DNA of 64,000 nt from Terriglobia bacterium (lineage in GTDB: Bacteria; Acidobacteriota; Terriglobia; 20CM-2-55-15). A program made the translations under genes and the position numbers. This document shows positions 8,318 through 41,428 of the stretch, piece after piece (the first letter of the stretch is position 1; each line of letters begins with the position of its first letter). The stretch is taken from NCBI GenBank assembly GCA_963664115.2, contig CAXWPJ010000002.1, positions 736,001-800,000 of the forward strand, written 5' to 3'. The notes beneath the pieces were generated by a model. That model saw only the letters and a program-made list of their open reading frames with translations, did not search any database and had not been told where the DNA came from.

Positions 8318-8533
8318 TCACGGCAGCGGCACCCGTTCCCTCAGTGCGTCAAACCAGTTCAGAACGATGTTGATCTGCTGGCGTTCGGCGTCCCTGGCAA
8401 ACTCTTCCGGTAGCGTCTTAATCGCCACCTCACGACCCAGCTTCGTGTCATGCGCACGCTACACCTCACCCATGCCACCCTTACCCAGGGCAGAGAGGAT
8501 CTCGTAGTGGCCGAGTTTTGCGCCGGAATCCAT
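8318..8533 (-). pseudogene. Empty Ser/Thr kinase shell (N-terminus fused in frame to C-terminus)
   Basis: Translates [70 protein letters not shown]. Confidence 0.9.
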
Positions 8534-8573
8534 GATTTCGTATGTGGCCGAGTTGCGCCGCGAAATTCTGGTA

Positions 8574-8603
8574 AGTCTATCTACATGGGAGGCTTATTGG
8601 CAA
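8574..8603 (-). promoter_or_regulatory. Putative sigma70 promoter of array junction
   Basis: TTGCCA-18-TAGACT upstream of kinase ATG; equivalent position in other units. Confidence 0.5.
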
Positions 8604-8631
8604 GGCAAGGGTCAATTCTAGAATCTTGGTC

Positions 8632-8719
8632 AATTCTCAATGTTCGAGAAGATGATTTCTCAGGACTTGACCTCGAAAATCAGGGGACCGGCACCCGTTC
8701 CTTCAGTTCTTCAAACCAG
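8632..8719. repeat. Array junction copy 1: palindrome plus kinase C-terminal remnant
   Basis: aattctcaatgttcgagaagatgatttctcaggacttgacctcgaaaa followed by reverse WFEELKERVPVP*. Confidence 0.9.
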
Positions 8720-8842
8720 ACTTCATGAGTGCGGCTCACCCCGAATGATGAAAATAAGCATTTTCGCGCTCCCGATACTGCGGAAGAGGGCCCGAAACGC
8801 CTGGACTGATCCTAAGGGACTTACGCCATATTTTCGTAACAG
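8720..8842. repeat. 123-bp insert in kinase C-terminal remnant (copy A)
   Basis: Near-identical to 28551-28673; same insertion point, flanked by CAG. Confidence 0.85.
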
Positions 8843-8985
8843 TTCTGGACGAATTTGATCCCCTTGGATGAAATCGCTATACCCTGACCCCACTTTCCAT
8901 ACGAATGCGCTCTGATATCGACTATGCACTCATGACGCCACCATTTACTTCATTACGTCGGCAGTTGTGCCGGTATACTCCGCGC

Positions 8986-9798
8986 ATGATGAATCTCGCC
9001 CTCATTACCGTCTTCACCGCCCTGGCGATTCTCCTTTGCGCAGGATTCCTACACCTGCTTCCTCGTCTGGGCGGTTTCGGGCGCCGCATCTCCGAGTCAA
9101 TGTGCCGCGCCCCGATGCTCGACGTGCTGATCACCTACTTCGGCATAGCCCCACTCGCCGTCGGTCCCATCGTCGGAGGCTGGATCGGGCTGGCCGGCGG
9201 CATCTTCGGTCAGATCAGCGCGGTGCTGATTTGGTCCCTCCTGCACAGCGCGGCCAATCCCCGCGTGCGCCGCGGTCCTCGCATCCACAGGACACTCAAC
9301 CAGATCGTCGGCCCCTGGCGAAATTACACGGCCCTCTGGCTGACGGCGCTGATGGTGCCGATGTTCTGGACCGTGCGTATGATCGAGATCTTTCTCTATC
9401 CTTTGATCCGCGGTCTCGTGCGCTTCCCGAAGTACGACCAAGGCACTTGGGTCTGCGTATCGCGCCAGAAGTTCGACGGCCTCATCAGCCACGACCTGAT
9501 CTGGTGCCTTTACTGCGACTGGATGACCGGTGTCTGGTCGCTCGGCTCGGAGATACTGCGCAACGTCGAATCATTCTGGTGCCCCATCCGATTCTCCAGC
9601 CACGAGAAGTGCGCCAACTGCCAGGTCGACTTTCCCGACGTCGCCGGCGCATGGGTTTCCGCCGACGGAACGATGACCCAGGTGACCGAGGTCCTCAACC
9701 GCAAGTACGATGGCACAACCGATGGCGCCAACTCATGGTTCGGTCACCCGACCAGACTGACAGGCAACGGCGACCCCTCCACGAAACGGGAGTGCTGA
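8986..9798 (+). CDS. Hypothetical membrane protein with Cys-rich C-terminus (cargo)
   Basis: Hydrophobic helices, WCLYCDW, FWCPIR, CANC; start uncertain (ORF opens at 8905). Confidence 0.7.
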   Translation: MMNLALITVFTALAILLCAGFLHLLPRLGGFGRRISESMCRAPMLDVLITYFGIAPLAVGPIVGGWIGLAGGIFGQISAVLIWSLLHSAANPRVRRGPRIHRTLNQIVGPWRNYTALWLTALMVPMFWTVRMIEIFLYPLIRGLVRFPKYDQGTWVCVSRQKFDGLISHDLIWCLYCDWMTGVWSLGSEILRNVESFWCPIRFSSHEKCANCQVDFPDVAGAWVSADGTMTQVTEVLNRKYDGTTDGANSWFGHPTRLTGNGDPSTKREC

Positions 9799-10018: not shown

Positions 10019-10101
10019 GATTTCTCAGGACTTGACCTCGAAAATCAGGGCACCGGCACCCGCTCGCGCAGCTCTTGGAACCAGTTCAGGACTATGTTGA
10101 T
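10019..10101. repeat. Array junction copy 2 (right arm plus C-terminal remnant)
   Basis: gatttctcaggacttgacctcgaaaatcagggcaccggcacc...; reverse INIVLNWFQELRERVPVP*. Confidence 0.85.
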
Positions 10102-11851
10102 TTGGCTCGACGCAGGATCAAGAACCTTAGGGCTGGAGTGGTATAACTTGAACGCCGTCTCTTAGCAAAACAGTGCAGTGTGGAAGTAAGGCTGACCAAC
10201 GCCCTCTCAATGACATCTCTCTCCTGTTCCGACACCGACGCTTCTCAGCTTGGCGTACCGGGATGGAACGCCCTTAGTAGACACGACTTTAGTTCCTGGA
10301 CGTGAGGTTGCAATCGAGACCCTTCCCGAAGAGTTCGCCAAGGATGCATCGTTAATTACCAACTATCTTCCTGTGTGTCACTTCAGCACGTCACTCTTTT
10401 CAGCCTCCTCGATGTATCGCTGCACATCTTCTTCGAGGAGCAGACGTTCGGACATCAACTGACGTGCGACATCTGTGACAGCCTGGACGTAGCCACCGTG
10501 AGTTCCGTATCGTTCCTCCAAGGACAAACGCGGGTCACCAGCCCCCAATCGCTCGGCCTCGGTCTTCGCAAAGGGAATGCTCTGGCCAGCCCCCTCGCAT
10601 CCGTCGTTGAGCCCCAAACCCTCACGGCGCAAAGCCCAGCCCGTTGTCGTTGCCAGCGGTGCTGCCACAGGTGGCAGCCGGATACCCGCAATTTCGTTCC
10701 CATCCTGATCCGTCTTAGCGACGAAGGATGGATAGGTCGGCCTATCGGCAAACGAGGGTGGGTATTTCGTTATGATTCCTTCGTCAAACGACGGGCCGAA
10801 GTCGAACAGGTAGCGAGTGGTGATAAGACCCGTATAGGTGACACCCGGAATGTTCGGGAATCCCAATGCGGCCTGGGGCACTAGTCCGGTCATTCTCGTC
10901 GATTGGGGCTCCGAGAACACCGCCGTATCATCCGACACTCTTGGTACGCGACTGTCAGGTGGTGCGAGGTCCTCCGTAACCCACTGATCGAGAGCTACGA
11001 ACAGGGCTCGCAGGGCTGGCCCCGGATCGGTCGGGTTGCGGGGCTGTTGACACAAGCCTAGACCTTCAGCTCCTCCCCCATGTTGCATCCCGGCGATGAG
11101 ATAGAACCGAACGTGGTCAGGGTCTGGCAGATCGTTCCCCTCAGTGTCGGTATGCAGCAACGATCCGGCTTTAACCCAATACTCGTTGGCCGAGTTGACC
11201 TCAAACGCTTTGGGACAGGTATTTGTTGCCAGACAACGTTCGGCGCGACCGCCCTTCTTGCCAGACACTGGATCTTCGATCACTGGATAGGCGAATGGGA
11301 AGATTCCCTCCGGGTACAAATGATTCTGGCGATTGTGTTCCGTTCGGGCCGTCTGTGCAAACCGGTAGTTGATGGCCACACCGCTACCTCCGGCCACCCA
11401 GTTCTCTATACCGTCTATGACGCGGCGCCCGGACTCGTCTTCGTTGAACCCAAGCGTCTGGAAATCATTCAGGTAGCGCCCCGGCTGCGAGCGCGCCCAT
11501 GCAAAAGTGTGCTGCACGTCCCCTGCGAGAGGGTTCGGATTGCCAAAGTTGTCCTCCGAGGCATACCGCAGGAAAGATACGAAATCCCGTGTGGCTGCCA
11601 GTCCCAGTCCTGCCACTAGCGGGTCTTTCGCAATGTAGGCAAATTCGTAGATGTAGCCCTGCGCGAGTGGGGTACCAGCCGGCAGTAGACGAATGGTCTG
11701 CTCATCGACGTATTCCCAGTCGCTTCGAGGAACGCTCATTGGCTTATCGTTGAGGAACTGTCTTACTGTGAGCGTCGCCTGCGTCTTGTCCAGTGTGCTC
11801 GCTGCGTAGGCGAGCCGGGACGTCATGGTAGAGGCATCGCTGACACTGATG

Positions 11852-13236
11852 GAGTTATAACCGAATCTGGTGTTTGAGGGATTGAATAAGAGCGGCGTAT
11901 CTGGTTGATTTGTTGTGACAAAACTTCAAAGCAACCATAGGAGATACGCCACTGTGAGCAAGAGTAACGTGAATGGACCGGAAGGTCGAGAAACGATTGA
12001 GGATCCAGTAACAGAACTACTACGAGTTGGGGCACAGCAACTGATCCAACGCGCAGTGGAAGCCGAATTGGCAGAGCTGCTATCCCAGCACGGTGGCCGG
12101 CGAACTGAGACAGGAAACGCCGGGGTGGTACGCAACGGTTATCTGCCGGAACGCGAACTGCAGACGGGATTGGGTCCGGTAACAGTCCAAATCCCGAAGG
12201 TCCGTGCCAAGACGGGCGAAGCTGTGACGTTCCGATCGGCCCTGGTACCACCGTACATTCGGAAGACGAAGTCGCTGGAAGCAGCGGTGCCGTGGTTGTA
12301 TTTGAAAGGCGTTTCCAGCGGCGAGATGGGTGAGGCCCTAAAAGTTCTTGTCGGTCCCCAGGCGCAGGGTCTGTCGGCGAGCACGGTATCGCGGTTGAAA
12401 CAGGTTTGGGGCGAACAGTACCGCCTCGGATGCGAGGAGCGTTTGGATGCAGATCGCTGGGTCTATGTCTGGGCCGACGGCATCTACAGCGGACTTCGGG
12501 CGGAACAAACCAAGTTGTGTGCATTGGTCGTGATCGGCGTGAATGAACGCGGAGAGAAGCGTTTCCTGGCGATCGAAGACGGTGTACGGGAATCGACACA
12601 GAGTTGGCGCGAGGTCTTGTTGAAGCTGAAGTCCCGTGGGATGAATGTTCCGAAGTTGGCCATCGGTGACGGTGCGATGGGGTTCTGGGCCGCACTGGAG
12701 GAAATCTATCCCGAGACACGTCAACAACGTTGCTGGATGCACAAAGTCATGAACGTCCTCAACTGCCTGCCCAAGTCGGTCCAGGCGAAGGCGAAACAGG
12801 CCCTGCACTCGATCTGGCAGGCCGAGACGAAGGCAGACGCCGAGAAGGCATTCGACTTGTTCATTGAAACCTATGAACCGAAGTATCCGAAAGCCACACT
12901 CTGCCTGCAGAAAGACAGAGAGGAACTGCTGGCCTTTTACGACTTTCCGGCCAAGCACTGGCAGAGCATCAGAACGACGAATCCCATTGAGTCGACCTTT
13001 GCCACCATTCGACACCGAACGAAGCGATCCAGAGGTTGCCTGACACGGGATGGCATGCTGCACATGATGTTCAAACTGGGCCAGTGCGCTGAGAACAATT
13101 GGCGACGATTACGAGGATTCGATGATCTGAGCAAGGTAATCATCGGAGTGAAATTCAACGATGGTGTCGAAGCGACACAAGTCGATCAGGCCGCCGCTTG
13201 AATCAATCTCCTAAACACCACTTTTGACAATAACTC
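11852..13236 (+). mobile_element. IS256-family insertion sequence with 9-bp TSD
   Basis: Inverted ends gagttat...tggtgttt; TSD acactgatg at 11843-11851 and 13237-13245. Confidence 0.92.
11954..13201 (+). CDS. IS256-family (mutator) transposase
   Basis: RNGY, YVWADG, IGDGAMGF, QRCWMH, IRTTNPIES motifs. Confidence 0.92.
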   Translation: MSKSNVNGPEGRETIEDPVTELLRVGAQQLIQRAVEAELAELLSQHGGRRTETGNAGVVRNGYLPERELQTGLGPVTVQIPKVRAKTGEAVTFRSALVPPYIRKTKSLEAAVPWLYLKGVSSGEMGEALKVLVGPQAQGLSASTVSRLKQVWGEQYRLGCEERLDADRWVYVWADGIYSGLRAEQTKLCALVVIGVNERGEKRFLAIEDGVRESTQSWREVLLKLKSRGMNVPKLAIGDGAMGFWAALEEIYPETRQQRCWMHKVMNVLNCLPKSVQAKAKQALHSIWQAETKADAEKAFDLFIETYEPKYPKATLCLQKDREELLAFYDFPAKHWQSIRTTNPIESTFATIRHRTKRSRGCLTRDGMLHMMFKLGQCAENNWRRLRGFDDLSKVIIGVKFNDGVEATQVDQAAA

Positions 13237-13959
13237 ACACTGATGTACTCGTACGAGGATCCCGTGATTGAGGAACCGTCAGCGTCACGCGCTACTGGCA
13301 CCGTGATTGTCAGGCGGTCGTCACCGGGAGCGGTAGAAGTGTCCCAACCGCCCCACACCAGCGTGTAGCCACGCTGCATGAGGAATCCCTCGCCCGCATC
13401 GGTGGCTGTCGTCGGATCGTTCGTTTCAGGACTGTTGTTAAGCCCCGAAAATCGCTTTCTGCCTCGATTGTTCACTTCCATGAAAAGCTTGTGACTGCCT
13501 TGCCGCAAATCTACGGGCTTCAGGATGTAGACATCGATCGAGTACTCGACCATGCCGTTCGCGTTCCGCGGCGCAAACTCTATATCTGTAATGACTGCAT
13601 TACGCGGATCGGTGGGGTCCACCTCGCCGTAGGCCACGCCTCGCAGCTTCTCGTACGGGCCAACGGCGCCAAACCTTTGGCCTTCAAATGTTGGCGATTC
13701 CACGCTGGTAATCTCTATGCGCACGATGTGTGCTTGAACAGAACTCACGCTGATCACCGTGATCCAAACCAACACCAAAAAACTCACAGCCCCTCTCCGA
13801 TGAGTGCCTGAAGATCCGTCACCTGCAATCAGCCTCGTGAGCATGGTTCCTCCCTCCCGGTAGCGTGCACCGGGGTTTCCTTATGCGAGTCCGACGTCAA
13901 TTTCATCAGCACAGATGTTTCTGCACTGTGGATCCAGATAAGAATAGTCTTGTCTGAAC

Positions 13960-14204
13960 CATCCCATCCTTACCCAAGAGCAAGGCATCTCGTAATGGCC
14001 GAGTTGAGTTCTGGATTTCATTATTTAATGTGCACCGAAACGAGCCGTGAAAATCTCGGTAAAGAATACTAAGGGAGGAAGTTAGGTGCTATTAAATTCT
14101 CAAACATTAAATTCTAAAATCCTGACAAACGACCTTCTCGGACTGTTAGAAAAGGTCCTAAAAACGGGGTTCTCAAGGTCCGAGAAGATGATTTCTCGGG
14201 ACTT
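13960..14204. repeat. Degenerate kinase N-terminal remnant, promoter region and junction palindrome copy 3
   Basis: ctcgtaatggccgagttg near 13990; ttctcaaggtccgagaagatgatttctcgggactt at 14170-14204. Confidence 0.8.
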
Positions 14205-15034: not shown

Positions 15035-15324
15035 AATTCTCAATGTCCGCGAAGATGATTTATCAGGACTTGACCTCGAAAATCAGGGCACTGGCACCCG
15101 TTCCTTGAGTTCTTCAAACCTCTTCGAACCAGGTCTAGAGAGAGACGGTTACTGAATGTTCTGGTCGAGCGGTGCTCCGCTCTGAGAAAAGATGGTGGGG
15201 TTTGTTGGATGCCAGTTATCCGCTGCAAGGACGATACAGGACTTGACCTCGAAAATCAGGGACTGGCACCCGTTCCTTGAGTTCTTCAAACCTCTTCGAA
15301 CCAGGTCTAGAGAGAGACGGTTAC
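15035..15324. repeat. Array junction copies 4 and 5 (local direct duplication)
   Basis: 15064-15152 nearly identical to 15237-15324. Confidence 0.85.
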
Positions 15325-15685: not shown

Positions 15686-17248
15686 TTAGGCCCCGCCCTC
15701 CAGCGCAGCCTGTTGCTGCATTGCAGCCGGTCCGACGATCCGCTCAAAATCGGCATTCAGCCCCGGCTGACCGTGAATGGGGACATGCGTCGTAACGTCC
15801 AAATTCAGCCGCCTAATGTTGTTATACAACGCAACCGCGTTGGCGCCGACATTTGCTGGTGGCTGTGCACCGGCAGGCGGCGGACTCCAGAGATCCGCGT
15901 TAATCAGAATCTGCTCTTCCGGCAAATAGGCGATCAGCATATCTGCCGCGTGATTGAGATTTTGCACGTTAAAGAGAAGAAGCGTGCGATCTCCATCACT
16001 GATGAAATGCCGGTCCGTGACGGTTTCCAGCGCGACCGGTCCGGGCCCAGTGGTGGCGAGCGGATTCCGGGATAGCGTGTCGGGACTTAAGGTCCGTATC
16101 TGCGACGCAAAGACCGCGTCCCTAAAGAAATCCTCGTTGCTTTCATGCGTAACCACGGTCACGCCGTGAGCGACATAGGTCCGCGCACCGCCTAGATGGT
16201 CCCAATGGTGATGGGTAGTGACTAGATAGCGGATGGCTTTACCCGGAATAAGCCTTTTAATTTCGGCAATCACGGGGAGTGAGCGCGCTTCATTCTGCGG
16301 AGCGTCGACGACGGTGACAAAATCATCGAACTCAATCGCCACGCTATTATGCGAACCACCAGCCATGAGCCACACGCCGTCGGCAACTTCCTGCGCTGCT
16401 ACATTGACCTGTGGCTCCGGCGCGTAGCGTACGCCGTCAGGAACCGTCAGGGCGGCGCCGGCGACATTAGCACTTGCTTCACCTACTTCAAGATTTAGCC
16501 AGTTCATTCCCGGCCGGGCCGTCAACAGATGATCGCCACGGTGGCCGTGAAACAGGAACGGAAACATTATTCCATTGCCGATGTCCTGCCATTCCGCATA
16601 GCGGATCTCTATCTGCATATCGCCCATAACAGGATTAGGAATCTGCGTGATAAGGCGCTCCATCAAGTTTTCGTCGTTGAATTCGCCCGAAACGCGGTAA
16701 CCCATGGTCGTAAATGCGACGACCTTTAAAGTGCGATCCTCGGAGGCCACGTAACGGTCTACGACGGTTACATCGTCGGCTGCCAGCGCCGATTTGATAA
16801 ATCCATGCGGGCTGATTGCGATCATGAATTTGCCAAGCTCCGCAGTTGAAGTGGCTTGCGCAGTGGGTTCTCCGTCGTTGTTCAGCGTCCAGGCATAGTC
16901 GCCGCTTATGAAACCCAAATTCCGCCTTTCGCCGATAATGGGTGATCTGCCGCCGCCGCGCGCGGGATAGTCGCCCTGAACGCGAACAAATTCTTCCCGC
17001 GACGAACCGGAAGAATAATCAATGGTCATGTCGTAGCTCTGCAAGACATGGCGCGGCCAGTCTTCGCCGTCGGCAAAATTCTGTCCCACCGCGCCCATCC
17101 AGCCCGAGCCCGAATATTGGACCGAATTTACCGAACTCGCGCCGATGGCGTTATCCGCCGCTTCCAAAAAGCTTGCTGCATCCTGAGCAGCTGCCGGCCC
17201 GGCCATCAAAGCCGAAGCAACCAGCCATATCCCTAGTTTGTTTCTCAT
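15686..17248 (-). CDS. Secreted MBL-fold metallo-hydrolase (cargo)
   Basis: Signal peptide, THHHWDHLGG, HAADML, PIHG; paralog of 28776-30338. Confidence 0.85.
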   Translation of the reverse strand: MRNKLGIWLVASALMAGPAAAQDAASFLEAADNAIGASSVNSVQYSGSGWMGAVGQNFADGEDWPRHVLQSYDMTIDYSSGSSREEFVRVQGDYPARGGGRSPIIGERRNLGFISGDYAWTLNNDGEPTAQATSTAELGKFMIAISPHGFIKSALAADDVTVVDRYVASEDRTLKVVAFTTMGYRVSGEFNDENLMERLITQIPNPVMGDMQIEIRYAEWQDIGNGIMFPFLFHGHRGDHLLTARPGMNWLNLEVGEASANVAGAALTVPDGVRYAPEPQVNVAAQEVADGVWLMAGGSHNSVAIEFDDFVTVVDAPQNEARSLPVIAEIKRLIPGKAIRYLVTTHHHWDHLGGARTYVAHGVTVVTHESNEDFFRDAVFASQIRTLSPDTLSRNPLATTGPGPVALETVTDRHFISDGDRTLLLFNVQNLNHAADMLIAYLPEEQILINADLWSPPPAGAQPPANVGANAVALYNNIRRLNLDVTTHVPIHGQPGLNADFERIVGPAAMQQQAALEGGA

Positions 17249-17400: not shown

Positions 17401-17616
17401 TCACGTCATTCCTAGATTGCACGAGCCCTTGCCCGCCTCCCGCAGTCGCTGAGCCTGCTCGCGGTCAAAGATTCGCCGAGGCCGTCCAGAGGGTTTGCCT
17501 TCCTTCCTGGCACGTTCCAACCTGTCGGTGGCGCGGTAGGCCTCGCCCACACCCCCTTTACCGAGTGGGCCGGTGATCTCGTAGGGACCGAGTTTTGTGC
17601 CTCTCGCAAGGGCCAT
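17401..17616 (-). pseudogene. Kinase N-terminal remnant fused to resolvase-like C-terminal fragment
   Basis: MALARGTKLGPYEITGPLGKGGVGEAYRATD then LERARKEGKPSGRPRRIFD (serine-resolvase hinge-like). Confidence 0.65.
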
Positions 17617-17879
17617 GAACTCTCTACCTCACTACTGTCGCTTGTAAACTGAAAAAGCTGGAGAAAGTCTATAGAACGAACGGGTTGGAAGCAACGATTG
17701 GAATCAGCAGGATTCTCAACGTCCGACAAGATGATCTATGAAAGGGGATGTCAAGAGAAACAGCTCCCCGATGGCCGGCCAGACGGACACTTTTGTCGTG
17801 ACAGCCAGCCCCTCTACCGTTATGTGAAGCCCTGGTTCCGGCAATCCGGAGCGAAATCGTACATCTTTAAGACGGTCGA

Positions 17880-18100
17880 TTCAGAAACTGAACAGCATAT
17901 GGGACGGCATGTGCCGACCATGGATCTATCTGAGCCTCGAAGGCTATCGCTGTTTCAGGTCGTGCGAGGGGGGATAGAGATTTAAAAGTGTCCTCTGGAC
18001 GTATCCAGGGACCACATCTTGTGCAGATCCTCACCCTCGATCCTCAGTTGTTCCGACTCCGTCTAACGACTCAGTACGGCTCTACCGGTCACGGATCGAA
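17880..18100 (-). ncRNA. Putative bridge/seek RNA of the IS1111 element (boundaries approximate)
   Basis: Two guide-hairpin-guide units: ACAAGATG/TAAATC match the target; ACAGCGAT/ATAGATC match the circle junction. Confidence 0.65.
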
Positions 18101-18105
18101 ACGGC

Positions 18106-19170: not shown

Positions 19171-19588
19171 CTCGAACGCTCCTTTTCTGGGATCAACGCT
19201 GTATACGTTGATCAGGTTGTTGAGTGAGTCTTCTCTCAACAACCCCCAGTCTAGGGGCGTCCTTTCATACTGCGATTTATCAGGACTTGACCCGGCATCT
19301 CTGTCTCCGCCGACTTCCCCGAAGCCGACTTTTGGGTCGTTAATGCTGCCCATTCCTAAACGCTAGGCGACTACTCATTACCTATGCAGTGAAACACCAC
19401 CAAACCCCTTTGAAATTTCGTCGTTACAAAGCGGCCAGCCCTCAGAAAACCCCCTTGCCCTGCACCTTAGGCTTCCGATAATCTGGCTGCTACAATAACG
19501 GGAGAGTAACCTGCGCTTGCTCAGGTTGACCTAATCGGGCCGAGGGCGCGATCCTTTTCGAGAACCGCGAGAACCGGAGGATTTCATC

Positions 19589-21313: not shown

Positions 21314-21398
21314 TTTCTCAAGGTCCGGGAAGATGATTTCTCAGGACTTGACCTCGAAAATTAAGGCACCGGCACCCGTTCCTTCAGGTCTTCAAACG
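21314..21398. repeat. Array junction copy 7
   Basis: tttctcaaggtccgggaagatgatttctcaggacttgacctcgaaaa plus reverse FEDLKERVPVP*. Confidence 0.9.
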
Positions 21399-28690: not shown

Positions 28691-28775
28691 CCGGGACCGC
28701 CTCGCCCCACCGATGTCAGCTCTTTCAGCTGGAACAATCGTGATGAATTCTTCGCCGGCTGGGTGATGCCCACTT

Positions 28776-30338: not shown

Positions 30339-30399
30339 AGCGTGTGCTCCCGGCCGCTGTTCGACCTGTGGAAGGCCAAGGAGAAACCGACCTCCGCCT

Positions 30400-30598
30400 C
30401 TGCCCATGGCGGAAAGGATCTCGTAGTGGCCGAGTTTGGTGCCAGATTCCATGTTTAAAGTGTGCCGAAACGAAACGTGAAAAAGTTGGATAAATCTAAC
30501 TACAGGTGGGGGTTATAAGCAAGGAAGTTGTGAGCCCGCGTATCACGGTTAATTCTCAACGTCCGCGAAGATGATTTGTCAGGACTTGAACTCAAGAA
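30400..30598. repeat. Kinase N-terminal remnant, promoter and junction palindrome copy 10
   Basis: [20 protein letters not shown]; TTGCTT-18-TAGATT; aattctcaacgtccgcgaagatgatttgtcaggacttga. Confidence 0.88.
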
Positions 30599-31915: not shown

Positions 31916-31975
31916 CTAGGGCACCGGCACCCGTTCCTTCAGTTCTTCAAACCAGTTCAGGACGATGTTGATTCC
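31916..31975 (-). repeat. Kinase C-terminal remnant
   Basis: GINIVLNWFEELKERVPVP*. Confidence 0.9.
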
Positions 31976-32214
31976 CTGTTGCGCGGTTTGTTGCACGAGT
32001 GATCCGGCTTTACGAGCAAGTTGCATCGAGTCAATGCATCGGAGACTGCGTTCGACGTTGGATCGTATGGATTGATAGTGATGTCCGATATCGAATGCAC
32101 TATAGTGATCGAAAATGCGGGAGTGCGCGCAACCGGCTTTGCCGCGTCGCCGGATGTGGAATGCTCTCACAATGAAGAGCCGGGCCTGCGTTCACGATTT
32201 TAGGAGTTGAAACA

Positions 32215-33210
32215 ATGCAACGAATCACAAGGAATCCATATTTGATTTTTCCTTTGGGCGCTGCTGCTTCAATGGCAGGCCTGGTGATCTTGTCTCTCCT
32301 GAGAGACGATCCTCTCAGTGTCAATATTCCTTTTGTCGCCTTTCTAGCTTTGGTGCCGCTAGTGGCTGGGTGGTACTCCTTCAGCACAAGGTCACGCGCC
32401 AAACGAGGCTGGTGGATACTGCATTGGCTCGGGACTACGGTTCTCGGCGTTTTGGCAGCTGGCATCGTATTGTTTGGCTCATTGATCTTGATTCCACCTG
32501 GACCTTACGAGGCATACAACTACGCTCACTTTAACTTTGCGGCATATGACTCGGTATCAGGACAACGTGTGAGCGTAGGAGGGGAGGCGCTGGATGCGAC
32601 TCTCTATACGCTGGAGGAAGACAATGTGAAGCTTTCCGACCTCTGGGCGGAGAGGCCGATCGTTCTGGAATTCGGAAGTCTCACCTGACCGGTTTTCTGT
32701 GCAAAGGTTCCCGTGATGGAACCTCTAGTGAGAGCTTACGAAGGCAAGGCTGATTTTTACGTGTTGTATACGCGGGAGGCTCACCCCGGAGAAAACTATC
32801 CAGCACACGAGAGTTTTTCCGACAAAATGAACGATGCGCGGGATCTCAAACGGTTTGAACCAGTTGAGCGGACAATTTTGGTTGACGACCTGGAAGGAAC
32901 CATGCACACAGACTATGGCGCCAGGCCCAATTCTGTGTATGTGATTGGGAAGGATGGGATCATCCTGTTTCGGGCGGACTGGAACGATCCGGAGGCGGTG
33001 CAAGTCCAATTGGATCGACTCTTGCAGAACGATGGCAACGCTTCCGGTTTAGAACCGGTCGATATAACAGACGATTTTACGGGTATCGATGGTGGTGCTG
33101 TGAACACAGCTATGAGAGTCATGAAGCGTGCGGGATATACTTCGATTGTGGATTTCGCGGTCTCTTCCATGAATTTGTTTCAAGGTCGGATTGCTGCACA
33201 GCGCAATTAA
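32215..33210 (+). CDS. Membrane-anchored deiodinase-like (thioredoxin-fold) selenoprotein
   Basis: RPIVLEFGSLT-TGA-PVF...YTREAHP in one frame; hairpin AGGTTCC-cgtgat-GGAACCT 16 nt after TGA. Confidence 0.85.
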
Positions 33211-33214
33211 CTCG

Positions 33215-33364
33215 CTTCACGTTGAAATCGAGTTAAACGGTCAGCGTCTTGATGGCAACTTCACGCCCAAGTTTAGTATCCTTCGCACGCCACACCTCTC
33301 CCATTCCTCCCTTACCGAGGAGTGTGCTGATCTCGTAATGACCGAGTTTGGTGCCGGGCTGCAT
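33215..33364 (-). pseudogene. Kinase N-terminal remnant
   Basis: [41 protein letters not shown]. Confidence 0.88.
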
Positions 33365-33375: not shown

Positions 33376-35376
33376 CTATTTAAGGACCGCGCTGACTTCG
33401 GCTTGCACGACGAGGCGGTCTGCGTCGTCCTGGAGAAGGTATCGTCCGCGCACCAATCGGGCGGCGGCTGCGGACACTTTCGCGACGTAGTTCTCGTGGC
33501 TCCCGTAGCGTTCTTCGAGCGACGGTCTCGGATCACCGACTGCGAGTCGCTCTGCCCTGGTCCTGGCGAATGGAATGTAGCCACCGGCATTGGTCCGAAT
33601 ATGGCCCTTGTAGAACCCACTGGCAGTCGTATTCCAGCCCGTGTACGTTCCCAGAGGAACCTGGTGGAGCACGCTGGCCACTCCACTGACCTCGTTCCCA
33701 TCGGCGTCGACCGTTGGCACTACTGTGGGAAGCACTTGGCGAATCGGAGGAGGCTGGATCGTGATGACTCCCGAGAGGTCGTTGTAATCGAACTGCGTTC
33801 CGAAGTCATATTCGTAAAGTGGGTTGAGAATTCCGTCCGGTATCGGCACACCTGGGATCGTTGGAAATCCAAGCGCGGCCTGTGTAGGTAACGTCAGTTC
33901 TCCTCGATCGAGTCGCGGATATTGACTCGGTGGAGGGAGCGTACCCTGCACGACCCAATCCACTAACGCAGTCTGCAACGCACGCAATGTGTCGCTGGAA
34001 GGATTCGGGTTCGGTGCCAGGTCGCAGCAGGCGTTAGGCTCTGGGTTTGGATCGAATCCGCCGGGTCCACCCCCATGCCTCACTCCCGGGAAGTAATACC
34101 GTCGGACATTCGATGGCAAGGGAATATCGCGGTCAGCCCGAGTGCCCACCAAGTTCGGAGACGCACGCAAGTTGTAGAACTCCGCCGAGCCGAACGTTTC
34201 CACGATCTTGGGACAGGTTTCCGTAGCCTCGCACCGATCGAGCAATCCCGCCGAGGCATGGCCTCGCGCTTCGTCGGCATAATTGGCCCACCAGACAACG
34301 CCATCACTCCCGGCTTCGTACATCGCAGCCGCCCCACCGGGAGCTGCGAATCGGATATTCATTGCCAGGAGGCGAGCGGCACGTTCGGGGTTGCTGCCGT
34401 CGAAAACAATTCGCCCAGCCTCGTCCTGATTGAAGCCCAGGTGAATGAAGCTTCGAAGGAAGTTCCCGGACTGCGAGTTGCCCTGGCTTACCGTCCAGTT
34501 GATCCTTCCGCGCAGAACATTCGGAGCCCCCGCATCGTCCTGGGTTCCGTAGCGCAGATAGGAATTCAGATCTCGCGTTGCAGCAAATCCGATTCCGTGG
34601 ACCTTGGGATCCTTGGCAGTGTAGACAAGCTCGTACAGAAAGGCGGGATTGAATCCGCCCTGGATACAGATCTTTCTCGGATCGGGTGTGCCTGGAAAAG
34701 GGCTCCGACTGCAATCGGCAAAGGCCCACTCTGTGCTGTATAGAGGGATGACAGCACCATGTTCTGAGGCTCGGCGGGTCAGGGTGGCTTGACCCGTATC
34801 GAGCGTGACCGGATCGGCGGTCCCCACAACCCGACCGCGAATTATTGGCAAGGTCGTCGTGTTCGGAGGCATGTCGCTGAACCTGGCGAGCACGGGCCCC
34901 GTGATACTGGATCCATCGGAGTTCCTGGCTATCGGAACAAAAAGCGTCTCCCTACCATCGGCGGGCTCGAGGTCTCCCTGCCACCCACTGGCGACAAGGA
35001 CGTGGCCTTGATTTCGAGCATCGGCGAGGAACCCACCACCGGTCAGATTGATCCGGCCGCGGTTCGGGACGAAATAGAGAAGCGCTCCACTGGCTTTCGC
35101 CATGTCGGTAGGTTTGATGATGGTGAACGTCGCCACGTATTCCACCATCCCTCGCCCGTTGCGTGGAGCAAATTCGAGATCGGTAATGATGGCGTTCAGT
35201 GGGTGCCTGGGGTCCACTTCGCCATAGGCGTGGCCTGTGAGTTTTTCGTATCCATCATCGCCTCTGAGCGTCTCCGTGTGTTCTACTACGAGCCGCGTGA
35301 TCTCAGCCGGGGTGGGATTCGCCACCGTGAGGATTGCCACAGCCACGAGCGTGGCCCTGAAGAGTCGAACCTGCAT
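33376..35376 (-). CDS. Secreted alpha/beta-hydrolase-domain protein (cargo)
   Basis: Signal peptide, GNSQSG nucleophile-elbow-like motif, [12 protein letters not shown]-terminus. Confidence 0.85.
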
Positions 35377-35399
35377 GCGTTACCTCCTTGATTTCCTGA

Positions 35400-35620
35400 G
35401 CGGGCCCAGGAATTCGTAGTGGCCGAGTTTGGTGCCGGAATCCATGTTTAAAGTGTGTCGCTGAAAGGTCTCTGAAAAACTCGGTAAACGATACTAGAGG
35501 TGGGTGTTAGAGGCAATCAAAAGGTCAGGCCCTGATAAACGACATTGTCAGACATTGAAAAACCTCAGTAATTTGCCCAATTCTCAACGTCCGACAAGAT
35601 GATTTGTCAGGACTTGACGT
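35400..35620. repeat. Kinase N-terminal remnant, promoter and junction palindrome copy 11
   Basis: [16 protein letters not shown]; TTGCCT-17-TATCGT; ttctcaacgtccgacaagatgatttgtcaggacttgac. Confidence 0.88.
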
Positions 35621-35654
35621 CGACTTTTCGTTCCAGATTCGGCGACCACACCTT

Positions 35655-36275
35655 TCGTTAACGCGGCCGCCGTCGGGTGCAGCCACTTGTTAGGCGGCCC
35701 GTTCGTCAAGCCGCGAAGTGGTATTTGAGACATTGAGTCTCGGACTCGACCATTCCGGCCAGCATGTCAGACGCTGTTCCAGGCGCGAGCCGTACCTCAC
35801 GGGTAGCCGAAAAGGCTGTGTGCGCCCCTCCAATCCGATTCAGCTCGAGGATAGCGTCGTATTCGAGAACGCCAAGAGCCGGTTCCAGAGCGCGATAGCG
35901 AAGGCGATAACGACCTGCCCCTTCTTCCGCGGTTCGTTCGTAGATCTCCTCTTTCAGCGTGGTGCCTGCCACCTCAAACTGAAATGTTGACGGCACGTTG
36001 TCCGGTCCGCCGCTCAACCACTTGAAATCGCTTGTCAGTCCCGGCAAACCAACGGCAACGAGGCGCTCCCAGTCCCACAACAGTGCCCAGACTTCGGCTG
36101 GAGCGTTGTCGAACGTCGCTGTAGCAACGATCCTGTATTGGTCGGGCCCGGTTACAGTGGTCTCAACATTGACGGCGCCGCGTTCCGATACTGGTTCGCC
36201 CGCGTTACGCTCGTTCGCCATACGAAAGCCTCCCCGTTCCCGTTTGTCTGCCTAACATAGTAGTAGGCTGCGGTC
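35655..36275 (-). mobile_element. Integron-type gene cassette with partial attC sites
   Basis: Minus strand: GTTAGGC (36256-36250) before the gene; GCCTAACaagtggctgcacccgac (35695 downwards) after the stop. Confidence 0.65.
35706..36221 (-). CDS. SRPBCC/polyketide cyclase-like protein
   Basis: APAEVWALLWDW, LKEEI, LRYR motifs. Confidence 0.7.
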   Translation of the reverse strand: MANERNAGEPVSERGAVNVETTVTGPDQYRIVATATFDNAPAEVWALLWDWERLVAVGLPGLTSDFKWLSGGPDNVPSTFQFEVAGTTLKEEIYERTAEEGAGRYRLRYRALEPALGVLEYDAILELNRIGGAHTAFSATREVRLAPGTASDMLAGMVESETQCLKYHFAA

Positions 36276-36455
36276 AGACACAGTTAACTCCCCCCGTGCC
36301 TTGCGATCTTTTAAACACGACGCCACCTGCAGCTCCAAAGCCTGTGTTGTGATTTTTCTGTGTCTTATGCTGAGGCAATGCCGCGGAAGAACTGGAATTA
36401 GGCTGCAATGCGATCACCTGGACGTATAGTCGGCTTATCGGAAAGTAGCAGTTTC

Positions 36456-36560
36456 AATTCTCAACGTCCGAGAAGATGATTTCTCAGGACTTGACCTCGC
36501 AAATCAAGGCACTGGCACGCGTTCCTTCAGTTCTTCAAACCAGTTGAGGACGATGTTGAT
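36456..36560. repeat. Array junction copy 12
   Basis: aattctcaacgtccgagaagatgatttctcaggacttgacc plus reverse INIVLNWFEELKERVPVP*. Confidence 0.92.
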
Positions 36561-36597
36561 TGGACGTTCCGAAACTAAAGGGATGGTTTTTGCGAGG

Positions 36598-38112
36598 TCA
36601 GTTCACGGGGCGGGCGGGAACGTTCTGGAGTTCGGAGACACCCCGGTCGAACAGGTTCCGGATTCTGGAACTGGATCGAAACTCTCTAAGGATCGCGCCC
36701 TGCCGACCTCGGTAAGTTTCGTCGATCACATAAGCCAGAACAGTTGCCATCACCGCGCCTTCCTCGGTGTCGGTCGCATCGAAACGTCGCGCGAAACCCC
36801 GCAGAACGCCCTCGAACTCTGAGTCCTCCCACTGCTCGAGGGTCGCGTCGATCCTGACGAACTCCTCAAGGACGCCAACGTACCGGAGACTGGGCGGGTG
36901 ATGCCAGAACGAAACGTCGGGACCAAACTCCTCGACATAAAACGGAAGATAGAGGTTGGCGTTTGCGGGAACCCGGCGGATCAGCGCGGGATTGTACCGC
37001 CGCACCTCATCGACGGAGAGCCCGGTCTCCCGGGTGACTTCTTCAAGACTGATCGCCCTCGGGACACGCATGGCATAGACCGGAACCTGAGCAATCTCCG
37101 TCTTGAGGTTCTCCACGTTGAACGTGTTGCCAAACACCATCTCCGCATACAGGGAGGAGCGGGGACCGTAGGTCCGGAAGATTTCGCGATAACGGCGCAG
37201 CGAAACCCGGCGCAGTTCGACGGCGAAAGCCGCGCCCAGGAAATACTGCTCCCGGACGTCCCGGCCACCCAACCGCGAGCCGTTGATTACCGTGCGTCCG
37301 ACGTTTGCGGCCCCGGCATGATGCTCCGAAAGCGCCGGAATAAATGATCCATATTTGGTCGCCAGGGTCACCAGGTAGGCGGCACAGTACGGTGCCTGCG
37401 TTGTCTGGTTGTACCCTTCGATGACATGGGAGGCATGCCGCTTGAGCCGATTCCAGTTTCGATCGAGCCACTGGCAGAAACCCAAGGCTCTGGCCTCCGA
37501 ACGGACCTTGCCGTTCAGTCCCGATTCGAGGACGGCCTGGGCCAGACCGATCTCGGCGGGGACGGCAAAGCGTTCGTAGATAGCGCTCCACTCGTCGAGA
37601 AAAGCACCGTAGCGCCGGGCGTTTGGGAGCAAGAAGTTCCCCCGGGTAGAGTTGTGGACGACGGGTCCGACACGGGGCTCGAGAAGCGAGGCAACCAGGT
37701 CGCGGCGCCGGTTCTGGCGCGACGGCAGAGACTCGCCTTCAAGGAGGGACTCGAACGCAGGATCTTTCCAAAGGCCCTCACGAGCCCAGTTTCCCCGGGT
37801 GGGAAACGAGACCAGGAGCCTTCCGTCCACCGCGCTACCAAAAGCGACATGCCCGTCCGGGATCGTGAAGACATGCTGCCAGAACGGATAGGACGGCCGG
37901 AACGCCTCTATCGCCGTAAGATCGCTCTCCAGGCGGGCCCGGGAATACTCGTACGCCGGATGGTCAAAGCGGGGCGGGGCGGGTTCGAGACCAACAGCAG
38001 GAGCGGAAGTCTCCGCGGCCACCTCCATCAGAACCACGTCTCTATGGCCAATATGATCGGACGCCGTCAGAATGACGAGCGTGGCGAGGACGAGGATGAT
38101 GGACTGTTTCAT
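36598..38112 (-). CDS. Lytic transglycosylase (SLT) with LysM-like domain (cargo)
   Basis: AVLESGL...ARALGFCQW SLT motif; LSVDEVRRYNPAL. Confidence 0.7.
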   Translation of the reverse strand: MKQSIILVLATLVILTASDHIGHRDVVLMEVAAETSAPAVGLEPAPPRFDHPAYEYSRARLESDLTAIEAFRPSYPFWQHVFTIPDGHVAFGSAVDGRLLVSFPTRGNWAREGLWKDPAFESLLEGESLPSRQNRRRDLVASLLEPRVGPVVHNSTRGNFLLPNARRYGAFLDEWSAIYERFAVPAEIGLAQAVLESGLNGKVRSEARALGFCQWLDRNWNRLKRHASHVIEGYNQTTQAPYCAAYLVTLATKYGSFIPALSEHHAGAANVGRTVINGSRLGGRDVREQYFLGAAFAVELRRVSLRRYREIFRTYGPRSSLYAEMVFGNTFNVENLKTEIAQVPVYAMRVPRAISLEEVTRETGLSVDEVRRYNPALIRRVPANANLYLPFYVEEFGPDVSFWHHPPSLRYVGVLEEFVRIDATLEQWEDSEFEGVLRGFARRFDATDTEEGAVMATVLAYVIDETYRGRQGAILREFRSSSRIRNLFDRGVSELQNVPARPVN

Positions 38113-38707
38113 CGAACGGCGGCACCTTGAACTCCACCATCGCCGTGGATGCGTTCCCAGCTCTTTCCCATTTTCGACCCTCGCTTCGGGGCCTGCCACA
38201 GATACAGTTGAATTAGGACACCGTTCCCGAAGTGCAGTGGGAATCGGCGGTTCCGTGGACCTCGAGAATTCTCCGACAACGGAGTATATCTGGACGCCAA
38301 ATCACACGCAACAACTGAGCGTGGCCCTCAACGTCCCGAATAGTTCATGCGGACCTATCCCCTCAGACATCTGTCAATGCGAAAGTCGAGGGAATTCTTG
38401 TTGAAACCCGGATTGGAACGGCGCCGGAATAGCGAGACAACCGGGCAGTCCGACACCTGAGCCCTAAAATGGTAACGAAAGTGTTCAGTATCCTCTCGGG
38501 CAATTCTGCTTTGCAGATGTGAGTTCTGTTTCACTTGTTACCGGAGTCTTTCAGTCTGGACGTATGGCCTTCTGTACGTTCGAGGGTGAGGTTCCACGCG
38601 ATCTGGCAGCGGCCGGGTTGGGCACCAGATTCCATCATTAGTGCCTCTGCCCGCTCGTTCTGAGCTTCAGAACCAGGGCGTTCGGATCCAGTGCTGAACG
38701 GCGTTCG

Positions 38708-39502
38708 CTATGGATCCAGGCCGCCCGCAGGGTTCCGGATGGTCTGGTTGAAATCCTGCTCGTCGATCGGCGCGAAAATGACCTCGTAGATTTCGGCATA
38801 GGGCGAATCCGGCCCCTGCAGCTTGAACGTTCTCGTATCGCTCGTCCAGGGTTGCGCAAAGATACCGGGGTCGTTGAACGTCATGGTGAATTCGATGGTC
38901 TCGCTGTCCACTCGCCGCCAGCGTTCCTCGAGGCGCAAGGCGGGGCTGGCCGGCGTGCCCCACTCGTCAAGCCAGGCTCGGGAGTCCAGGCCGACGGTTT
39001 CGACCACGAACGTGTCGCCTTCCCAACGCCCAATGGAGTGTCCGTACCACCACGGATCCGGATTCTCGGGCAAATCCCGTCCGTCCGTCCAGATGATTCG
39101 CCATGTGTGATTCCACTCGAAGATTTGTACGACTTTGTCCTCGAACTGAAATGTTTCATGCGGTCTGTTGTATTCCAGCAAGCGCGCCAGACCAACGGGA
39201 TTCGCGCCTCCGAGCGGATCGTTCCCAAACGCTGGGGGTGCGCGTCTTGGCCCTTTTCCCGGCTTGTTTTCGTTGAACGCGGCCAGCCCCTGCGGCGTCC
39301 ATGGCGGTTCCTGGTTGCTCCATTCCGTCAGGCGGATCCCCTCGTCCACCAGGGCGCCGCCTCCGCCTGTTCCGAACATCCATACGCCGGTGAGGTCCTG
39401 CTTATCGAATCCTTGCTGCCCCCCCTGGGCCATGGCCCCAAGCGAAAGGAAACCCAGGGCGAACGCCAACAATATGATTAAACTGATTCCACGATTCTGC
39501 AT
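38708..39502 (-). CDS. Secreted hypothetical protein, partner of DUF6152-like gene
   Basis: DLTGVW, GHSIGRWEGDTFVVET, DPGIFAQPW. Confidence 0.75.
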   Translation of the reverse strand: MQNRGISLIILLAFALGFLSLGAMAQGGQQGFDKQDLTGVWMFGTGGGGALVDEGIRLTEWSNQEPPWTPQGLAAFNENKPGKGPRRAPPAFGNDPLGGANPVGLARLLEYNRPHETFQFEDKVVQIFEWNHTWRIIWTDGRDLPENPDPWWYGHSIGRWEGDTFVVETVGLDSRAWLDEWGTPASPALRLEERWRRVDSETIEFTMTFNDPGIFAQPWTSDTRTFKLQGPDSPYAEIYEVIFAPIDEQDFNQTIRNPAGGLDP

Positions 39503-39530
39503 CTGAAACTCCACGTTGTTGAGACCAGTC

Positions 39531-39920
39531 TTACTCGATCGGCAAGAGTTCCTCGCCGTTCACAAACACGGACTCCCGCCAGTCGATCTCCCCAATGGGC
39601 GAGCCGGCCCTAGATGGATACATGTAAAGTCTGACCTCGTCGCCCAGTTCAAAAATGTCTTGGGCATACCCCCGCCTGGCGAACATGCCCGGGCTGAGAG
39701 TCTCCGCGCCCCAATTCACCACTTTTCCATCCGCGCCGGTCACATCGAAGAAGAGCCGAGCGTGTGGATTGGCCCAAACCCACTCGGTCACGGTTCCTTC
39801 CAGCTCGATGGGATTGTCGCGGTCATAGGATATCGCCGTGCCGTGGTGCGCGAACACCGGCCCGGAAACCACAAGAAAGCCCACGAGTAAGGCAAGGCAT
39901 GTTCGGTCCGTCACTTTCAT
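39531..39920 (-). CDS. DUF6152-like exported protein
   Basis: Signal peptide ending AHH, GTVTEWVWANPH. Confidence 0.75.
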   Translation of the reverse strand: MKVTDRTCLALLVGFLVVSGPVFAHHGTAISYDRDNPIELEGTVTEWVWANPHARLFFDVTGADGKVVNWGAETLSPGMFARRGYAQDIFELGDEVRLYMYPSRAGSPIGEIDWRESVFVNGEELLPIE

Positions 39921-40094
39921 GTGAACTCTCCTAAATAAATGCTAGTTGTAAAATAGATACTTGCCTCTTGTTGGTGAGGGACCGATACGACATCCGCGCC
40001 TCGGCCTGTGGCCGCGCGCGGGTTGACATAACACCCATACGACGACATTGACAGCGCTGCCATAGCCGTCGGCCGCTGCTTATATCGCTTATCC

Positions 40095-40398
40095 GTAGCT
40101 TGGCTTCACGTTCAAACCACGCGAGTCGATCCGCATCCTTGGCAAACTCTTCAGGAAGCGTCTTGATGGCGACTTCGCGTCCGAGTTTCGTATCTCGCGC
40201 ACGCCACACTTCCCCCATGCCTCCTTTTCCAAGGAGCGTTGAGATCTCGTAGTGGCCGAGTTTGGTGCCGGATTCCATAATTACGGTCTGTCAGAACAGT
40301 GTATAGAAAGCTGGGGGCAGTCTATAGAAGGAGTGGGATAGCAGGCAATGAATTCTCAAGGTCCGACAAGATGATTTCTCAGGACTTGAACTCGAACA
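40095..40398. repeat. Kinase N-terminal remnant, promoter and junction palindrome copy 13
   Basis: [29 protein letters not shown]...FEREAKL; 40279-40370 closely resembles 21790-21880. Confidence 0.9.
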
Positions 40399-41349
40399 TC
40401 AGGGTACCGGAACCCGTTCCTTCAGTTCTTCAAACCAGTTAAGGACGATATTGATTTGGGGGCGGGAGGGTTCGCCCGGTTCTGTCTGCCCGCTCGCCGG
40501 CACCCAGGCGAGCGACCCCGAGTCGGAAACAGAGTACTGGGACGGTCGCGTCCGAACACCCTCGAAGAGGGTAACCGGCTCACCCACGGCTTCGAGCGTG
40601 GTCAGATCAAACGGAACCGCGAACAGCACATCATCTAAACCGTAAAGAAGGTGACCGGTCGGGAGATACCGCGGGAATAAACCGGGGAACAGGACCTTTC
40701 TCTCTCCGGATTCCAGCGACTGCACGACGACGTCTCCTTCTACTGGCCCCTCGGCCTGGAACAGCACCGATCTTCCGTCGGGCAGAATCCGAGGCCCATA
40801 AGTAAGAGACGCACCGGAGTCCTCGATCAGCACTTCAGGCGGCCCCCCATTTGCCGAAACCTGCATGACGGTTTCGTTCTGGCCCCACACGATGGTCTCG
40901 TCAGCGCCCCAAAATGGGCGGCCTGTCGGATCGCCGGCAGTATCGGTGAGCGTCACGTGAGTGCCCCCGCTGACGGGAATCTTCTTCAATTGACTGTCAG
41001 CTTCAGACCAGTAGCCAATCCACGCGCCATCCGGTGAAAAGAATGGGTCCGATGGATCGACATCGCTTCCCGGAATAGGGCTCGATACGAGGGTATCCAT
41101 TGCCAACAAATAGAATTGTTGATTGGCTACGTACACCATCATGGAGCCGTTCGGAGAAAGAGCCATAAGCGGGCTGCCTACGAGAGTGAATTGTTGGCCT
41201 TCGGGCAGGACATGAGAAAAGCGGCTGACCTCTAAGGCAGATGGGGCCGGGGAAGGCCTCGAGTTGCAGGCGGCTGTGGCGGCGATCACGGCCAGAACGA
41301 TGGCCGCAGCCCACGGCAGCTTCGATTGCGCTTTGGTACCTGAATCCAT
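40399..41349 (-). CDS. Internally deleted kinase derivative: MDSGTK + TM + partial TolB/PD40-like propeller + conserved tail
   Basis: ALSPNG, FSPDG, ILPDG repeats; ends QINIVLNWFEELKERVPVP; no kinase domain. Confidence 0.75.
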   Translation of the reverse strand: MDSGTKAQSKLPWAAAIVLAVIAATAACNSRPSPAPSALEVSRFSHVLPEGQQFTLVGSPLMALSPNGSMMVYVANQQFYLLAMDTLVSSPIPGSDVDPSDPFFSPDGAWIGYWSEADSQLKKIPVSGGTHVTLTDTAGDPTGRPFWGADETIVWGQNETVMQVSANGGPPEVLIEDSGASLTYGPRILPDGRSVLFQAEGPVEGDVVVQSLESGERKVLFPGLFPRYLPTGHLLYGLDDVLFAVPFDLTTLEAVGEPVTLFEGVRTRPSQYSVSDSGSLAWVPASGQTEPGEPSRPQINIVLNWFEELKERVPVP

Positions 41350-41428
41350 TGATTATATGTACAGAAAAACGAAATTTGAAAATATGGCTAGATATAACTA
41401 CAGCTTGGATTGATAAGCAAGAAAAGTC

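Follow-up and report, generated by a model that had tools for sequence, protein, structure and literature searches.

Gene modules reshuffled within and between species at the remnants of a kinase gene family in a Terriglobia bacterium

We analysed a stretch of 64,000 nucleotides (hereafter the window) from a Terriglobia bacterium (assembly GCA_963664115.2, contig CAXWPJ010000002.1, positions 736,001 to 800,000), in which the coding ends of a serine/threonine kinase gene family recur with unrelated genes between them. The 3′ ends (tails) and 5′ ends (heads) combine with a 36-bp palindromic dyad into junctions that serve as a module-shuffling platform. The platform is real: the gene modules between junctions are reshuffled within and between species. 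On balance, we think it probable that the kinase-family ends and the dyad mark modules of 1–2 kb, shuffled by recombination across homologies of 35–150 bp and not by a dedicated integrase. The genome to which the window belongs, G000, is 4.89 Mb and 97% complete, and G001, G002 and G004 are among its congeners.

Tail, head and dyad profiles were built from window sequences and then run on the whole of G000; reversed-genome controls gave no dyad, no tail and one head match. The initial annotation had listed about 11 tails, about 10 heads and 13 palindromes between 8318 and 41420. All 11 tails were recovered, along with a degenerate one outside that span (4896-4936, E 6.5e-4). Eight of the ten heads matched the profile, and the other two (38635 and 41349), too short for it, were seen in translation. 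The palindrome count agrees with 15 dyad matches, 13 on the minus strand and two inverted partners; the matches at 17714-17739 and 19274-19291 are halves of a single dyad interrupted by an IS110 insertion sequence (IS). Inspection of open reading frames, translations and profile matches bore out that no intact kinase is left in the window, and self-comparison and translation both displayed the repeated minus-strand tails, heads and dyads from 8.3 to 41.4 kb. The picture of one tail-palindrome-head junction recurring in a single orientation needed qualification: the repeats are real, but the junction is complete only three times (8.5–8.7, 21.8–22.0 and 40.3–40.5 kb) and otherwise partial, and one head remnant (10280-10366) is inverted. 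The listed tail at 15256 is detected by the profile, yet its stretch (15182-15324) is skipped by contigs of four of four public runs. Cargo between the junctions is a mix of hydrolase-fold, repeat, Fic and uncharacterised genes with three IS. Rfam and tRNA scans of the window gave no match, leaving a structured RNA or tRNA target unsupported.

Genome-wide, the profiles matched 220 dyads, 160 tails and 85 heads, a few of them counted twice since the assembly repeats some stretches. By manual count of the match list, G000 has 29 clusters of at least five elements, 17 of them with at least ten; the array in the window is thus one among some thirty islands on the chromosome. Neighbouring tails point the same way in 95 of 98 pairs and neighbouring dyads in 125 of 153, and the median distance between dyads is 2,059 bp. 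Only four kinases of the family are unbroken from head to tail (877–902 amino acids), and three near-full copies are broken. Intact members comprise a kinase, a hydrophobic segment and a WD40-like propeller; their homologs are annotated as serine/threonine kinases, one of them from an Acidobacteria bacterium, which points to an Acidobacteriota lineage. From this 2.7-kb gene, heads retain a median of ~145 and tails of ~90 nucleotides. Excluding the near-full copies, residual homology is continuous in length (heads 33–438, tails 30–1,293 nucleotides), and the cargo–kinase borders are therefore not site-specific. Many junctions are incomplete, with 138 of the 220 dyads lacking an upstream tail and 32 retaining a downstream head. 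The intact kinases show homogenisation of silent sites: in 27 non-independent pairs from eight proteins, the match rate at fourfold-degenerate positions is 0.73 for the tail (128/175), compared with 0.28 for the propeller and 0.31 for the kinase C-lobe. The idea that tails act as protein tags on cargo was rejected, as reading frames that terminate at the tail stop fall short of 100 codons in 112 of 132 cases. Near-identical duplicated stretches of 3–14 kb connect G000 contigs C2/C2, C5/C9, C6/C11, C10/C12 and C2/C12, several of them ending at a dyad; they may be strain variants or assembly overlaps.

Exchange was assessed in 1.58 Mb of junction-rich regions from five relatives, using non-IS blocks of at least 400 bp and at least 92% identity to G000. 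The relatives and G000 have 116 such blocks in common, with a median length of 1,160 bp, about one module; blocks more than 10 kb from any junction have a median identity of 85.9%. Among 225 non-edge block ends, 95 (42%) have a tail, dyad or head no more than 40 bp away, against a mean of 11% and a maximum of 18% in 500 slid controls, and 29 coincide with IS ends. Junction elements are rare inside blocks (4 observed, 46 expected), and 8 of 52 adjacent block pairs are also adjacent in G000. Three window modules are among the exchanged blocks, 28677-30464 (98%, G002), 33351-35304 (94.8%, G001) and 36477-38642 (94.1%, G002), and a contig from a seawater run holds 31920-33318, tail to head, in other surroundings. 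These block-end data already contradict the very improbable proposal that tandem kinase arrays simply decayed neutrally and became hotspots for IS and foreign DNA by chance. Such decay accords with the intact tandem arrays of genus g4, the continuous remnant lengths, the coding signature kept by the tails (third positions 0.16 versus 0.07 and 0.05) and the richness of the islands in IS copies. It fails to predict the near-exclusive retention of gene ends, the 3.8-fold enrichment of block ends at junctions, the depletion of junctions inside blocks and the reshuffled neighbours.

A scan of the genome and its relatives, as the initial annotation had proposed, found the feature genome-wide and the junction in four of four congeners. 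The annotation had placed the array between an M20 peptidase and a TRAP permease gene and named identical cargo order in relatives as a sign of simple pseudogenisation. The order differs: cargo below the TRAP gene is not the same in G001, G002 and G004. The M20 peptidase is no fixed flank, as it lies inside arrays both here and in G002, where it sits in another island. G004 trades modules despite having 2 dyad matches against 19 tails and 26 heads in its fetched regions. The strict dyad motif occurs in 6 of 151 genomes of the class and is abundant in G000 and G002 only; the variants in G004 and G001 carry a different spacer.

Tail-motif and kinase-core matches stand at 116:13, 103:10, 42:5, 58:15 and 25:8 in five genomes of the genus, at 56:92, 32:52 and 20:29 in three genomes of the sister genus g4, and at 14:20 and 17:26 in two of genus g10; because the searches are not equally sensitive, the contrast between genera alone is meaningful. 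In the fetched g4 regions, intact kinases stand in tandem, the stop codon of one overlapping the start codon of the next, beside hollow units and with nearly no dyads. Judged from these sequences, the tandem intact arrays are likely the ancestral state. One g4 genome, G141, has two island blocks in common with G000 at 97.5–98.5% identity and a G000-type tail–dyad junction. Tandem kinase–propeller arrays were seen at G098:C35:104-146 kb (L104-L106) and G141:C6:278-345 kb (L107-L110); the 92 kinase cores of G098 are an unusually large expansion.

The positions at which sequences switch were mapped with 270 dyad sites, from which 19 independent pairs shared the left flank only and 19 the right flank only. 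Several pairs of sites are identical up to the dyad and unrelated past it. With a shared left flank, 1 of 19 pairs is mismatched at −16, and linkage is lost at −3 (13 of 19 mismatched; random 0.65). With a shared right flank, 2 and 1 of 19 are mismatched at +14 and +20, and linkage is lost at +8 (10 of 19; random 0.53). A fixed crossover in the spacer would hold each arm with its flank; as this linkage is broken, a fixed crossover is unsupported. Among 27 pairs of tails that have the same upstream flank, the mismatch rate is 0.07–0.09 in the first 45 nucleotides and 0.21 in the final 12 (random 0.26); by eye, about 11 of these pairs switch to a different linker no later than the stop codon. 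Along tail and dyad, the switch points are dispersed and not fixed.

In the model that we favour, the arrays would have begun as kinase genes in tandem, with recombination homogenising their ends. Foreign genes would have entered a kinase gene by illegitimate events with variable breakpoints. A gene thus flanked by kinase ends could be exchanged with any junction in any island or relative, either by double crossover or by excision and re-entry between direct repeats. Erosion of the kinase sequence would then have proceeded towards the junction until the dyad and short ends were all that remained. The enzyme is assumed to be RecA, which is present in G000.

Several observations weigh against this model. 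Flank linkage is lost in a zone from about −6 to +14 that is centred on the spacer, and a site-specific start followed by branch migration could yield the same pattern. Several switches share only the 36-bp dyad and a short linker, and that is a short homology for RecA. Block ends at neither a junction nor an IS end number 101 of 225. The switch pairs are few and not fully independent, and the relatives were sampled in junction-rich regions only. Across 209 distinct sites the dyad is invariant at most positions and variable at symmetrical inner ones, and neutral homology does not explain this combination. Searches with one family each, in incomplete genomes, found no ComEC in G000 and no RecT in five of five genomes, so neither DNA uptake nor a short-homology annealase was identified.

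With its dif-like geometry and its attraction for insertion sequences, the dyad may make a site-specific contribution. It consists of two arms of 14–18 bp flanking a 6-bp asymmetric spacer with AA/TT borders. Folding is no better than in shuffled sequences (z −1.2 to +0.15), the arms do not covary at −3/+8 (78 observed, 78.8 expected), and Rfam has no match for the dyad. Mutual information is about zero across the spacer but equally so on the same side at equal distance, which makes it uninformative. Several IS types are inserted in or beside the spacer, one being IS110 by Pfam; the others we take to be a second IS110 and IS30, IS481 and IS701 types. A suspected group II intron in one dyad was rejected because it encodes a DDE-type transposase. 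For comparison, we located a candidate chromosomal dif, single-copy and near a GC-skew turn, at G000:C2:108118-108145 (on dif conservation, see PMC3025954). It has matches in 20 of 35 family genomes, with a second match in G002, G017 and G159.

Two readings give the dyad a larger role. The islands could be site-specific cassette arrays in which the dyad is a tyrosine-recombinase site, used by XerC/D or another partner, and the kinase ends are hitch-hikers; we consider this doubtful. Equally doubtful to us is a dedicated site, for XerC with another partner or for an undescribed recombinase, that arose between tandem kinases and supports gene capture in many islands genome-wide, integron cassettes included, with modules traded across species and genera. 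A tyrosine-recombinase site is suggested by the two arms and asymmetric spacer, the latter near-uniform per lineage and different in G004, G001 and G007; by the IS types in or beside the spacer; by the many dyads without an upstream tail; and by two g4 sites with a double change that preserves symmetry. One arm, the first (XerC), also matches dif at 6–8 of 11 positions in 63 of 77 distinct sites, scored against one site, the dif of G000 itself. The second arm reaches 6 of 11 at most against the XerD arm, mismatches at −3 and +8 reach random-pair rates where a spacer crossover would keep each arm with its flank, dyads are mostly direct repeats, unlike dif modules, and exchange also takes place in tails and in dyad-poor G004.

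The search for a recombinase co-occurring with the repeat, suggested by the initial annotation, found none in G000 or the relatives examined. G000 has 27 tyrosine-recombinase matches, which we take to be XerC/D-like, phage-like, IntI-like or paired with IS91-like transposases; genes that we presume to be XerC- and XerD-like are present. The sole dyad-flanked recombinase (G000:C5:52189-53139) was dropped as a dedicated enzyme: its distribution is patchy, with 8 of 35 family genomes giving a match and, for the query used, none of G002-G004, and at seven homologous loci a head lies nearby only at L062 and a dyad at none. The gene is bracketed by two inverted dyads carrying a second type of spacer, and behind each of them come a promoter region and a head that face outwards (L061, G000:C5:51900-53420). 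Its G007 homolog is divergent from two intact tandem kinases.

Junctions might instead persist as regulatory parts, comprising operator, promoter and ribosome site, that incoming genes capture, with recombination as a by-product. This we judge unlikely, and more so than the site-specific readings. The first non-IS downstream open reading frame is on the same strand at 45 of 69 heads and 116 of 187 dyads, cargo starts within 50 bp of the head at 35445 and is fused to the head at 30452, and each dyad half is itself a short palindrome, as in repressor sites. Against regulatory capture, co-orientation is only ~63%, few dyads keep a downstream head, a sigma-70 scan found 5 sites versus 4.7 expected, terminators are fewer than in shuffled sequences, and the tails as switch zones are left unexplained.

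Repeat-driven misassembly, which the initial annotation had raised against itself, is extremely unlikely. The assembly does contain near-identical duplicated stretches, some ending at dyads, and 15182-15324 is skipped as described; no contig among those listed spans the entire array. The same architecture, however, recurs in four independently assembled genomes of the genus, and contigs from public runs of four studies extend through module interiors and across head junctions with 0–3 differences. Misassembly could change the order of some modules, not create them. Partial matches to the window come from seawater metagenomes, and the public runs listed include no RNA dataset. Joints between junction repeats in Logan contigs have short sides, which makes them indistinguishable from other islands, and were not used as evidence of rearrangement.

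The features of the window are as follows, with coordinates, strand and description.

4896..4936, minus: degenerate kinase tail just downstream of the M20 gene
5014..6396, minus: M20 peptidase, cargo-like, since a tail follows here and also in G002, the distance to the TRAP gene there being 165 kb
6656..8188, minus: DDE transposase (PF13701) of a multi-copy insertion sequence
8318..8533, minus: empty shell, a 51-codon head (one internal stop) joined in frame to a tail
8635..8671, minus: dyad (profile)
8680..8861, minus: tail end with a preceding ~140-bp insert that is found again at 28551-28692
8905..9798, plus: cargo, 297-amino-acid protein with no Pfam family
10019..10101, minus: tail and left arm of a cut dyad (profile)
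10280..10366, plus: inverted head remnant
10378..13844, minus: cargo, Abhydrolase_10 gene interrupted by an IS256-type element (11915-13201); each half has a 90-92% match in G002
13959..14204, minus: dyad, inverted partner dyad (14117-14143), promoter-like region, short head
15038..15125, minus: tail end and dyad (profile)
15182..15324, minus: 143-bp stretch holding another copy of the tail, perhaps misassembled or specific to the strain
15686..17248, minus: cargo, metallo-beta-lactamase-fold protein
17524..17616, minus: head remnant
17714..19291, minus: dyad split at its 6-bp spacer by IS110 (transposase 18106-19170; Pfam and profile)
19589..21094, plus: cargo, MmgE/PrpD family
21316..21402, minus: tail end and dyad
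21577..21963, minus: complete junction of tail, dyad, promoter-like region and 71-codon head
22156..26869, minus: cargo, FG-GAP repeat protein, Fic-domain protein and uncharacterised 291-amino-acid protein
27938..28373, minus: cargo (F420H2-quinone reductase family), then a lone dyad (27938-27974)
28511..30589, minus: module of dyad, head continuing in frame into a metallo-beta-lactamase-fold gene (28776-30452), kinase end and split tail
31916..33364, minus: module from head (33237-33364) to tail (31916-31972) with two plus-strand genes (deiodinase-like) inside
33376..35618, minus: module of dyad, inverted dyad, promoter-like region, short head (35393-35445) and Abhydrolase_10 gene
35619..36495, minus: dyad-to-dyad module, polyketide-cyclase-family gene (35706-36221), then a truncated half site (~35660-35695) that we take to be attC-like
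36504..38642, minus: module of degenerate head (38635), SLT-like gene (36598-38199) and tail
38708..40455, minus: complete junction of tail (40399-40455), dyad (40354-40389) and 64-codon head from 40278, with a DUF6152 gene pair below
40399..41349, minus: 316-amino-acid kinase-less derivative of 6 head codons, hydrophobic segment, partial propeller and tail
41429..43378, minus: TRAP permease (DctM), conserved right flank

The region 28677-30464 recurs at 98% identity in G002 with junctions at both ends, and has a paralog at G000:C12:570 kb. Full-length homologs of the 316-amino-acid derivative have 76–94% identity and vary in the first few residues; as they keep the same frame and length, a hollowed shell appears to have been turned into a maintained gene. 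The ~140-bp non-coding insert occupies the same position in several tails (8720-8861, 28551-28692; G000:C12:562.4 kb and 585.5 kb).

The arrays resemble several known systems. Integrons are oriented arrays of one- or two-gene units with a palindromic repeat between them, a layout seen here too. The initial annotation had called the array integron-like or recombination-driven: kinase-derived junctions are indeed the exchange points of a cassette-like array, but the strict integron sense is unsupported because no recombinase tracks the repeat, remnant lengths are continuous and switch points are not at one position. Nor is there an adjacent IntI, an attC-type fold or a fixed crossover. A gene that we take from its motifs to be IntI-like (G000:C9:714590-715759) is not within 4 kb of any tail, head or dyad and lies ~190 kb from the closest island. 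Truncated halves, presumably attC-like, lie 53–77 bp upstream of four distinct dyads in the same orientation (window 35660-35695; G000:C6:39724, C9:992582 and C9:1231022), a pattern that is unspecific (26 matches, 18 in one IS; 13 in the reversed control). These halves suggest that integron cassettes may have been taken into the kinase arrays. Two complete attC-like sites lie at G000:C9:742824-743753, 28 kb from the IntI-like gene and outside the kinase islands.

In Rhs C-terminal displacement, recombination is likewise anchored in conserved coding segments of a paralog family, and arrays of remnants are left behind; what Rhs exchanges are variable ends of a single protein, whereas here the interior is replaced by unrelated genes. 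A REP/REPIN system with its RAYT, in which repeats flank a Y1 gene, was also rejected: no dyad occurs at the 12 Y1 loci, out of 19 matches, that were retrieved from five relatives, and beside a Y1 pair in G000 a dyad accompanied by a tail remnant is found at a distance of 330 bp, on one side only.

The PeSL elements of T4-type phages RB49 and phi1 are ~100-bp junctions in plastic regions, running from stop to start codon, ~50 per genome, with proposed gene shuffling by recombination (PMC2839356). As in that account, repeated ~100-bp junctions stand here at the borders of gene gains, losses and replacements. PeSLs are described there as non-coding promoter/terminator units in phages, with activity and mini-circles tested (PMC2839356). 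The anchors here, in contrast, are coding ends of one kinase family in a bacterial chromosome, with a weak-hairpin dyad and exchange across species and genera; conserved upstream regions are visible, and the sigma-70 consensus scan is at background.

Acinetobacter pdif arrays carry accessory modules between 28–36 bp two-armed sites with a 6-bp spacer, and are shuffled, targeted by IS and also chromosomal (PMC13141974; PMC12907356). Two-armed sites with a 6-bp spacer likewise bound arrayed, shuffled and IS-targeted chromosomal modules here. The pdif sites described in these reports share a conserved XerD arm, occur in alternating orientation and undergo recombination inside the site (PMC13141974; PMC12907356). 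Most consecutive dyads are direct repeats instead, modules are not inversely flanked, and switch points are spread. Neisseria minimal mobile elements exchange variable cargo through homologous recombination in conserved flanks (PMC3787668), as proposed here. Their flanks are whole single-copy genes at a fixed locus (PMC3787668); here they are hundreds of short gene remnants, so that modules, unlike minimal mobile elements, move between loci. The TRAP side is a conserved locus, but the M20 gene moves and modules occur in other islands.

Repeat-anchored module shuffling is thus known; what is new is that the anchors are coding ends of a gene family, are chromosome-wide and cross species. Titles and abstract beginnings in the open-access literature, subscription journals being outside the search, gave no description of this kinase family or its remnants in Acidobacteria. 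The model offers a concrete, testable account of how additive genomic islands can acquire and rearrange their genes with no integrase involved. A signalling gene family appears to have been consumed and its ends turned into a recombination scaffold common to the genus, with the probable intact ancestral state visible in a sister genus. The junctions delimit hundreds of recently exchanged accessory modules, mostly of secreted or uncharacterised proteins, and annotation pipelines would log the ends as kinase pseudogenes and miss the system. The precise 36-bp site is available for testing a recombinase or DNA-binding protein.

Two further loci were noted. At 59998-63567 the window has three gluconolactonase-family paralogs in a row, the last one inverted. 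At G000:C10:489.7-493.3 kb, beside a tRNA-like sequence, two copies of what we take to be a Y1-like transposase flank a gene pair that is presumably toxin-antitoxin-like (type IV).

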